Origin: Escherichia coli
GTDB taxonomy: Bacteria; Pseudomonadota; Gammaproteobacteria; Enterobacterales; Enterobacteriaceae
DNA length: 64,000 nt
Strand: one strand, 5' to 3'
NCBI RefSeq assembly: GCF_050920415.1
Contig: NZ_CP169309.1
The translations under genes and the position numbers were made by a program. Below, piece after piece: positions 52,980 through 54,088 of this stretch; position 1 is the stretch's first letter; every line of letters begins with the position of its first letter. Under the pieces are notes generated by a model. It did not search any database and was not told the DNA's origin. It worked only from the letters and a program-made list of their open reading frames with translations.

Positions 52980-53062
52980 CTCAACGGGGTGCCACGCTGC
53001 CGCGTGCGCTGAGAAAATACCCGTCGAACCTGATCCGGATAACGCCGGCGAAGGGATTTGAG
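52980..53062 (+). promoter_or_regulatory. TPP riboswitch (thi-box) in the thiBPQ leader
   Basis: ..ACGGGGTGCC..CTGAGAaaatACCCgtcGAACCTGATCCGGATAACGCCGGCGAAGGGA.. matches the conserved thi-box aptamer core, 40-120 bp upstream of thiB. Confidence 0.8.
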
Positions 53063-53104
53063 GCTCCTTCTCAAGTCCTTTGCCACTCTTCTTTGAGGTG
53101 CAAA

Positions 53105-54088
53105 GTGTTAAAAAAATATCTTCCCCTGCTGTTGCTCTGTACAGCACCCGCTTTCGCTAAACCCGTTCTGACTGTTTATACCTACGACTCCTTCGCCGCC
53201 GACTGGGGGCCAGGTCCGGTGGTGAAAAAAGCCTTTGAAGCCGACTGTAATTGCGAACTGAAACTGGTGGCGCTGGAAGATGGCGTTTCGCTTCTCAACC
53301 GTCTGCGGATGGAAGGCAAAAACAGTAAAGCCGATGTGGTGCTGGGGCTGGATAACAATCTGTTAGATGCCGCCAGCAAAACCGGGCTGTTTGCTAAAAG
53401 CGGTGTGGCAGCGGATGCCGTTAACGTTCCCGGCGGCTGGAATAATGACACTTTCGTCCCGTTTGATTACGGCTATTTCGCCTTCGTCTATGACAAGAAC
53501 AAACTGAAAAATCCGCCGCAAAGCCTGAAAGAATTGGTTGAAAGCGATCAAAACTGGCGGGTGATTTATCAGGATCCGCGCACCAGCACGCCGGGGCTGG
53601 GTCTGCTGTTGTGGATGCAAAAAGTCTATGGCGATGACGCCCCACAAGCCTGGCAGAAACTGGCGAAGAAAACGGTCACGGTCACCAAAGGCTGGAGCGA
53701 AGCCTACGGCCTGTTTTTAAAAGGCGAAAGCGATCTGGTACTGAGTTACACCACTTCTCCGGCTTATCACATTCTCGAAGAGAAGAAAGATAACTACGCC
53801 GCCGCGAACTTCAGCGAAGGTCACTATTTGCAAGTGGAAGTCGCCGCCCGCACCGCTGCCAGTAAACAGCCGGAGCTGGCGCAAAAATTCCTCCAGTTTA
53901 TGGTTTCTCCGGCTTTTCAGAATGCGATCCCAACCGGCAACTGGATGTATCCGGTGGCAAACGTCACGCTGCCTGCCGGTTTTGAAAAATTGACCAAACC
54001 GGCAACCACGCTGGAGTTCACGCCAGCCGAGGTGGCGGCACAACGTCAGGCATGGATTAGCGAATGGCAACGCGCCGTCAGCCGTTAA
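53105..54088 (+). CDS. thiB: Thiamine ABC transporter periplasmic binding protein
   Basis: ORF 53093..54088; GTG at 53105 chosen (VLKKYLPLLLLCTAPAFA signal peptide, 327 aa), which gives the 984-nt length recalled for K-12. Confidence 0.9.
   Translation: MLKKYLPLLLLCTAPAFAKPVLTVYTYDSFAADWGPGPVVKKAFEADCNCELKLVALEDGVSLLNRLRMEGKNSKADVVLGLDNNLLDAASKTGLFAKSGVAADAVNVPGGWNNDTFVPFDYGYFAFVYDKNKLKNPPQSLKELVESDQNWRVIYQDPRTSTPGLGLLLWMQKVYGDDAPQAWQKLAKKTVTVTKGWSEAYGLFLKGESDLVLSYTTSPAYHILEEKKDNYAAANFSEGHYLQVEVAARTAASKQPELAQKFLQFMVSPAFQNAIPTGNWMYPVANVTLPAGFEKLTKPATTLEFTPAEVAAQRQAWISEWQRAVSR

Follow-up and report, generated by a model that had tools for sequence, protein, structure and literature searches.

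The closest known counterpart of the element studied here is the leader of thiB (tbpA) in Escherichia coli K-12, one of three TPP riboswitches that tune the thiamine supply of E. coli. It is a current model for translational riboswitches under cotranscriptional, kinetic control and a candidate antibiotic target. Published experiments in K-12 have established its ligand dependence, the occlusion of its Shine-Dalgarno (SD) sequence, the use of a GUG start codon, the competition between helix P1 and a downstream linker, and the pausing of RNA polymerase. The aptamer mutation G35C abolished regulation (PMC11487190), and the ligand-site mutants G17C and G35C gave no TPP response (PMC11487190, PMC10578472). 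TPP binding and response of the K-12 allele were also observed by smFRET, RNase H probing and toeprinting.

Herein, we analyzed the corresponding locus in a window of 64,000 nucleotides from an E. coli genome (contig NZ_CP169309.1 of assembly GCF_050920415.1). The 401 bases around the riboswitch (52900-53300) were present in 5,399 of 5,426 complete E. coli genomes, with 100% identity to strain MFDS1022581 and 96.5% identity to K-12 MG1655. In both of these strains, RefSeq annotates a TPP riboswitch at the bases that correspond to 52975-53074, followed by a thiB CDS of 984 nt (equivalent to 53105-54088) with a GTG start and 327 aa. The leader differed from that of K-12 by four substitutions and no indels. 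Three were located in the P3 loop at 52998-53000 (UGC in the window, GUA in K-12) and one in the loop of the SD hairpin at 53091 (C in the window, U in K-12), whereas P1, P2, P4/P5, the thi-box, the linker, the SD sequence, the GUG and all spacings were identical.

Both published numbering schemes were mapped onto the window, and all of their named residues landed on the expected bases. In the Lafontaine scheme (+1 at 52977), G35 is 53011, G121 is 53097 within GAGG, G129 and U130 are 53105 and 53106 within GUG, and C144 is 53120. In the Lucks scheme (+1 at 52975), nts 5-9 (UCUCA) are 52979-52983, nts 85-89 (UGAGG) are 53059-53063, nts 95-99 (UCUCA) are 53069-53073, and nts 131-142 are the first 12 nt of thiB. 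Because the leader differs from that of K-12 at four loop bases without indels, we infer that the K-12 results apply to the window strain. The window allele would likewise bind TPP and switch expression, and no functional difference is expected from the four loop substitutions.

Taken together, we put at roughly 95% the probability that 52975-53107 is the 5' leader of the thiBPQ (tbpA-thiP-thiQ) mRNA, in which a TPP riboswitch represses translation of thiB from a GTG start at 53105.

As in K-12, the genes lie in the order sgrR, riboswitch, thiB, thiP and thiQ, and these are followed by yabI and araC on the other strand; SgrS lies upstream of the riboswitch at 50992-51218 on the minus strand. 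The permease gene thiP (54064-55659, plus strand, 531 aa) is an open reading frame whose first 25 nt are shared with the end of thiB. The regulated operon ends with thiQ, which encodes the ATPase at 55643-56341 on the plus strand, according to its open reading frame and to RefSeq coordinates corrected for a 15-nt offset.

A separate observation concerns thiP, which carries a 15-nt in-frame deletion at 54083/54084, where one copy of a GTTAATTCC direct repeat is missing. The deletion removes five residues (GWLIPG to G) and leaves the thiB stop codon untouched. It was found in none of the best 12 of 5,398 matching E. coli genomes, and the PLIPGWLIPG of ThiP is kept in all other genera.

The transcript start, as mapped from the published numbering, falls on the plus strand at 52975 in the numbering of Berman et al. 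or at 52977 in that of Grondin et al. A candidate -10 hexamer, TACACT at 52965-52970, lies 5-7 nt upstream of these starts. The sgrR stop codon at 52939-52941 is immediately followed by a candidate -35 hexamer, TTGCTG at 52942-52947, which is separated from the -10 by 17 nt. A set of 71 distinct upstream sequences, aligned by their P1, showed the -10 hexamer conserved as TACAAT or TACACT; of the -35 candidate, only the first two T's were conserved across genera. A consensus promoter scan returned nothing at its threshold, and the -35 candidate scored below it. These hexamers probably form the thiBPQ promoter, which would be a weak one, and conservation supports the -10 only.

The TPP aptamer and its conservation

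A sequence-only reading of the window had recognized a TPP riboswitch ahead of thiBPQ from its thi-box strings. Every quoted string was found in or close to its stated place: CTGAGA at 53009-53014, ACCC at 53019-53022 and GAACCTGATCCGGATAACGCCGGCGAAGGGA at 53026-53056. A covariance-model search, suggested as the check on that claim, was carried out, and the Rfam TPP family RF00059 matched 52975-53074 on the plus strand with 66.1 bits against a gathering score of 54.3. The E-value was 8.7e-12 when 6 kb were searched and 9.3e-11 over the whole window, where the 64-kb scan gave the same hit, far beyond chance. The match was full length (model positions 1-105), and only the optional P3a stem was absent. 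It coincides with the RefSeq riboswitch feature and contains the thi-box aptamer and a few flanking bases. It ends 31 nt upstream of thiB on the same strand, the position of a leader of a thiamine gene. The span given in the sequence-only reading, 52980-53107, extended from its first P1 base to the end of the GTG; transcription starts 3-5 nt before this span.

These sequence tests establish the family membership of the element, the positions of its helices and its pattern of conservation. All aptamer features lie on the plus strand. In the Rfam structure, the 5' strand of P1 (UCUCAA, 52979-52984, the 'incumbent') pairs with its 3' strand (UUGAGG, 53058-53063, the 'substrate') when the aptamer is enforced, and the 3' strand can pair with the linker instead; the strings CTCAA and TTGAG themselves lie at 52980-52984 and 53058-53062. 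P2 is formed by GGGG at 52986-52989 with 53020-53023. P3 folds as a hairpin at 52991-53009 (GC and CACGC, a UGCC loop, then GCGUG and GC). The conserved pyrimidine-sensing junction CUGAGA occupies 53009-53014 and includes G 53011, the base mutated in G35C. The pyrophosphate-sensing P4/P5 arm holds the thi-box core GAACCUGAUCCGGAUAACGCCGGCGAAGGGA, located as an exact string at 53026-53056. P1 thus closes the two arms P2/P3 and P4/P5, and all helices folded with the aptamer enforced. The structure alignment flagged no non-canonical pair in P1, P2, P4 or P5. The conserved core was complete, with GGGGUGC at 52986-52992, CUGAGA at 53009-53014, ACCC at 53019-53023 and the thi-box at 53026-53056, and the consensus thi-box core that defines TPP membership, GAACCUGAUC..GG.UAA..CC.GCG.AGGGA, was present. 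This core was nearly invariant across 75 leaders. Two antisense open reading frames over the leader (52851-53147, 98 aa, and 52964-53086, 40 aa, both on the minus strand) were set aside as unsupported mechanical calls in structured RNA.

Directly ahead of thiB, RF00059 passed the gathering score in 16 of 20 diverse genera and matched at E < 1e-6 in 19. Three of the four genera below the gathering score reached 48.5-51.1 bits. Loss of the riboswitch in these three was considered and rejected, as the true P1/P2 strand was found further upstream, with an ERIC repeat filling P3. In the fourth locus (L069, from a metagenome-assembled genome), the 5' part of the aptamer is really absent.

ERIC repeats were also seen more widely. 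In 13 of 79 loci of other genera, the P3 arm was 134-218 nt long and folded as one long hairpin carrying adjacent matches of 17-20 of 22 bases to both ERIC-PCR primer sequences, which were verified. In eight further loci, the P3 arms were 39-80 nt long and had the same end sequences as the full-length inserts; these shorter arms look like internally deleted ERIC copies. In one Citrobacter locus, the SD-hairpin loop contained a second ERIC. ERIC-bearing aptamers occurred in Citrobacter and Raoultella, where the P3 insert measures ~125 nt. A search of the searchable library for ERIC elements within riboswitch aptamers found no paper.

Expression platform and kinetic control

Downstream of the aptamer, folding gave two mutually exclusive arrangements, a hairpin that sequesters the SD sequence and an alternative of 53047-53063 with 53069-53084, which is the architecture of an SD-sequestering platform. 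The SD-sequestering hairpin at 53078-53105 (plus strand) pairs CUUUGC at 53078-53083 with GCAAAG at 53100-53105 and CUC at 53086-53088 with GAG at 53095-53097, so that it encloses the SD sequence and the first G of the start codon. When the aptamer was enforced in nearest-neighbor folding, this hairpin formed. The linker, or 'invader' strand, runs from 53069 to 53084 on the plus strand. Its first part, UCUCAAGUC at 53069-53077, pairs with the 3' strand of P1 and folds into an anti-P1 hairpin with 53055-53063. Extended to 53084 (CCUUUGCC), the linker also pairs with the thi-box at 53047-53054 and thereby consumes the 5' strand of the SD hairpin. When the SD sequence was forced open, this extended antisequestering helix formed (53047-53054 with 53077-53084), and it corresponds to the 'extended antisequestering stem' of Berman et al. 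(PMC10578472). It had been claimed earlier that sequence just ahead of the GTG could pair with the 3' side of the aptamer. The pairing itself was borne out by folding for linker positions 53069-53079 (to 53084), but its location was not: the linker lies 21-36 nt upstream of the GTG, and it is the SD hairpin that immediately precedes this codon and includes its first base.

In an alignment of 75 distinct leaders, 94% of cells could pair in the SD hairpin and 98% in the anti-P1 helix. One pair of the SD hairpin had changed on both sides and none of the anti-P1 helix. As the strands are almost invariant, covariation can neither support nor refute these helices.

Mutants of K-12 bear on them directly. 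TPP repressed translational fusions 2.3- to 3.2-fold and lowered the toeprint at C144 2.2-fold (PMC11487190), and a mutant with a weakened sequestering stem lost the TPP response (PMC10578472). The earlier expectation of translational control by TPP therefore holds. Deleting or randomizing linker nts 95-99 left the switch constitutively OFF (PMC10578472). When mismatches were introduced and rescued among the incumbent, substrate and invader strands, the mutants behaved as predicted, with full rescue restoring regulation (PMC10578472). Such compensatory changes support the view that P1 and the antisequestering helix compete.

The published mechanism fits the window well and would run as follows. 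With TPP, the aptamer helices P1-P5 (52979-53063) would bind the ligand during transcription, and P1 (52979-52984 with 53058-53063) would be locked, so that the linker at 53069-53084 could not invade and would stay unpaired. The CUUUGC of the linker would then pair with GCAAAG (53100-53105) and CUC with GAG, and the resulting SD hairpin would bury GAGG at 53095-53098 together with the first GUG base at 53105, preventing 30S binding. Without TPP, the linker would invade P1 and pair with the 3' side of the aptamer (53047-53063). Such invasion would dismantle the aptamer and occupy the 5' strand of the SD hairpin. Both the SD sequence and the GUG would then be free, and translation from the GUG at 53105 would yield the 327-aa pre-protein. 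The decision would be made during transcription, between the pauses at 53080 and 53093 and the pause at 53112.

TPP may also act at a second level, by lowering the amount of thiBPQ mRNA in a way that needs ribosome binding at the SD sequence and not elongation, for example if RNase E attacked the mRNA or if transcription terminated prematurely in the first ~12 codons. This would add to the translational explanation and does not replace it. TPP repressed transcriptional fusions 1.6- to 3.9-fold, a 2.4-fold repression at the mRNA level persisted in the GUG mutant while the SD mutant had none, and thiM, thiC, lysC and ribB behaved similarly (all PMC11487190). However, single-round transcription at rising TPP gave full-length transcripts only, and the Rho inhibitor bicyclomycin had no effect on repression in a construct that contained only 4 codons (both PMC10578472). 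In our scan of 52600-53200, no site resembling an intrinsic terminator was found on the plus strand, so the platform does not have the features of a terminating one. The two laboratories disagree, mRNA-level control is debated, and we consider the case for this second level to be evenly balanced.

The same mRNA-level data touch on the 12-mer AGGUGCAAAGUG (53096-53107), which was invariant in 80 of 80 sequences. Given this invariance and the published mRNA-level repression that needs the SD sequence and not the GUG, the 12-mer might have a second role beyond those of SD sequence, start codon and helix strand, such as a signal for ribosome-dependent decay or for pausing near 53112, although we think this doubtful. 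We prefer a simpler explanation, a chain of constraints in which CCUUUGCC probably pairs with both the thi-box strand GGCGAAGG and GCAAAG. Since CCUUUGCC must pair with both, and GGCGAAGG binds the ligand and cannot change, none of the three strands could drift.

It is unlikely that the switch is instead thermodynamic, with the TPP concentration setting the balance of ON and OFF states in a full-length mRNA that re-equilibrates independently of transcription. Grondin et al. do note that SD sequestration may also occur post-transcriptionally (PMC11487190). Nevertheless, TPP added after transcription repressed translation poorly, and sensing was ~5.7-fold more efficient during transcription than after it (PMC11487190). 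Furthermore, RNA-polymerase pauses at 104, 117 and 136, which map to 53080, 53093 and 53112 of the window, bound the sensing window in K-12: complexes paused at 104 and 117 sense TPP, those at 136 are refractory, and slower elongation improves sensing (PMC8609307, PMC5234074).

Our folding results also speak against a purely thermodynamic switch. The unconstrained minimum (-48.3 kcal/mol) consisted of the SD hairpin and the short anti-P1 hairpin, the SD-open state was 6.8 kcal/mol less stable, and the SD bases were unpaired with a probability of 0.01-0.02 in the ligand-free ensemble. As the SD sequence is already sequestered without ligand in folding, equilibrium alone would leave little dynamic range. 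For the same reason, equilibrium folding was dropped as a model of the ON state. Nearest-neighbor folding gives no SD-open ground state, so that the ON state rests on experiment and not on computation. An SD-sequestered ground state fits the preferred kinetic control and the low basal expression reported for K-12, a 6.3-fold drop relative to the promoter alone.

The initiation codon of thiB

The mechanical open reading frame list chose a longer frame for thiB, 53093-54088 (331 aa), starting at an in-frame TTG at 53093-53095. The sequence-only reading had preferred the GTG at 53105 and doubted the TTG. On both counts the evidence agrees with it, and thiB is the 327-aa CDS at 53105-54088 on the plus strand, encoding the periplasmic thiamine/TPP-binding protein, as RefSeq also annotates it. 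The SD sequence GAGG at 53095-53098 lies ahead of the GTG and includes G121, and the G of the TTG is its first base. When pairing with the 16S anti-SD was calculated over the preceding 20 nt, the duplex reached -6.9 kcal/mol for the GTG and -0.1 kcal/mol for the TTG.

For the start-codon comparison, 79 thiB loci of other Enterobacteriaceae species were added to the window (n = 80). The GTG was invariant in all 80 sequences, as were the nine bases before it, AGGTGCAAA. Conversely, the codon at -12 was start-like (TTG, ATG or GTG) in only 45 of the 80 and a stop in 3, with CTG, AAG, CAG, TCG, CAA, AAA or GAA in the remaining 32. Of the 79 other loci, 11 lacked any further in-frame start-like codon upstream. 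Per-position conservation showed that relaxation of the third codon position begins only at codon 2, after the GTG, and the would-be codons R-C-K between TTG and GTG had no synonymous change at all. Since synonymous variation is wholly absent there, the frozen nine bases point to a constraint on the RNA and not on coding. The riboswitch explains the conservation of these bases.

The experiments in K-12 give the same answer. Changing GUG to GAG (U130A) made a translational lacZ fusion barely detectable, and as the TTG stays in frame in this nearly silent mutant, it supports no appreciable initiation there. The 30S/tRNA-fMet toeprint lies at C144 (53120 in the window), +16 of the GUG, whereas a start at the TTG would place it 12 nt earlier. 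The SD mutant G121C had low and unregulated expression (all PMC11487190).

A start wholly or partly at the TTG, which would yield a precursor of 331 aa (MRCKVLKK...) whose signal peptide has a slightly extended n-region, is thus already largely refuted and has hardly any probability left: that the codon is in frame, was chosen by the mechanical caller, has a start-like counterpart in 45 of 80 relatives and would add R-C-K residues compatible with a signal peptide is outweighed by the missing SD sequence, the 35 of 80 sequences with a non-start codon, the lack of synonymous variation, the U130A and toeprint results, and the RefSeq annotation. For annotation, the practical point is that mechanical calling lengthens thiB by four codons, which run into the SD sequence of the gene itself.

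The protein itself was clearly identified. PDB 2QRY chain A, a thiamine-binding periplasmic protein whose model was built on mature ThiB from K19, aligned to residues 17-327 of the thiB product with an E-value of 2.4e-212. This close match to the solved TbpA places the product among the ThiB/TbpA substrate-binding proteins. We take the signal peptide to be cleaved after AFA (residue 18). As mature ThiB has lost this peptide, N-terminal proteomics would be uninformative on the initiation codon.

Comparison with other TPP riboswitches

The window element is the already known E. coli thiB/tbpA TPP riboswitch with its known GUG start; it adds nothing new, and the established picture of this riboswitch is unchanged. 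Like thiB, thiM of E. coli belongs to the same aptamer family, with a very similar published secondary structure, and is controlled at translation by SD sequestration with an anti-P1 alternative. It differs in its operon, as thiMD encodes salvage kinases. The two also differ in mRNA-level control, which depends on Rho and on 34 codons in thiM; in thiB, 12 codons are enough, and repression is insensitive to bicyclomycin. E. coli thiC shares with thiB the cotranscriptional sensing of TPP, an anti-P1 stem that ends the sensing window and a pause near the start codon. The expression platform of thiC is larger than that of thiB, thiC is subject to Rho-dependent termination, and the thiC aptamer alone suffices for control at the mRNA level.

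Enlarged P3 arms in other Enterobacteriaceae

Among the 79 thiB loci of other Enterobacteriaceae compared with the window (numbered with the prefix L), 13 had a TPP aptamer whose P3 arm measured 134-218 nt, versus the usual ~17 nt, and the genera concerned included Citrobacter, Raoultella, Pseudocitrobacter, and others. The enlarged arms were located at L005:765-902, L026:711-851, L067:717-853, and L023:684-901, and further cases were L011, L013, L039, L044, L050, L055, L060, and L071. Both ERIC-PCR primers matched side by side within these arms (17-20 of 22 positions each) and, judged from these adjacent matches, the insert is an ERIC repeat. 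The ERIC-bearing P3 folds into a single long hairpin that lengthens the arm, and the remainder of the riboswitch is intact. The window carries no ERIC insert in P3. Arms of 39-80 nt were found in L010, L012, L014, L016, L063, L064, L076, and L081; both of their ends were the same in sequence as those of the full-length inserts, and they look like internally deleted ERIC copies. A literature search found no publication on ERIC repeats within P3 of the thiB TPP aptamer.

The three full-ERIC loci that were scanned with Rfam (L005, L011, and L055) scored slightly under the TPP gathering score, because the model aligned to GACTGGGGTG inside the ERIC and not to the true P2 strand. Weak matches to the Rfam family V_AS5 were obtained in the same loci. 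Citrobacter sp. wls619 (L011) had a second ERIC-like copy in the minus orientation at L011:860-984, which puts ~125 nt extra between the aptamer and the start codon. This copy is flanked by CTTTGCC (L011:847) and GAGGTGCAAAGTG (L011:991), and therefore lies within the loop of the hairpin that sequesters the Shine-Dalgarno (SD) sequence.

The contig of L050 (CACSKA010000010.1) is labeled 'Chryseobacterium sp. 18061'; its thiB locus is enterobacterial (85% protein identity) and shares the riboswitch, P3 of which holds an ERIC. The contig is probably contamination or a mislabeled assembly. In L069, from a metagenome-assembled genome of Pluralibacter sp., the region upstream of thiB lacks two-thirds of the aptamer at its 5' end (P1 5' strand, P2, P3, and CUGAGA), and all that is left is ...TTCGGCGAAGGGATTTGAGG, the linker, and the SD hairpin. 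This loss may be genuine or may stem from the assembly.

A thiP deletion and other RNAs in the window

Compared with K-12 and with a strain otherwise identical to the window over the compared stretch, 15 nt, corresponding to one copy of the GTTAATTCC direct repeat, are missing at 54083/54084, where the thiB stop and the thiP start overlap. As a result, ThiP of the window has 531 rather than 536 aa (PLIPGWLIPGVS becomes PLIPGVS), and the thiB stop codon is untouched. The 15 nt were present in all of the best 12 of 5,398 matching E. coli genomes, and the motif is retained in all other genera. Either a sequencing error or a rare variant that arose by strand slippage may explain the missing bases.

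An Rfam scan of the window placed six other RNAs above their gathering scores: SgrS (50992-51218, minus strand, 228.9 bits), the leucine operon leader (46084-46233, plus), PssrA (24498-24587, minus), STnc40 (18782-18851, minus), naRNA4 (18198-18275, minus), and tp2 (6811-6924, plus). PssrA is chromosomal here, although it is described as a plasmid-encoded Shigella sRNA.

Repeated 7-mers in the thiBPQ leader

The leader of the window contains two 7-mers in duplicate. UUUGAGG is shared by the P1 3' strand (53057-53063) and the SD region (53092-53098). Variation of the -12 codon breaks this identity outside Escherichia and the relatives nearest to it, and given this lack of conservation the identity is probably incidental. 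UUCUCAA is shared by the P1 5' strand (52978-52984) and the linker (53068-53074), and the 5-nt core of this identity had already been noted by Berman et al. (PMC10578472).
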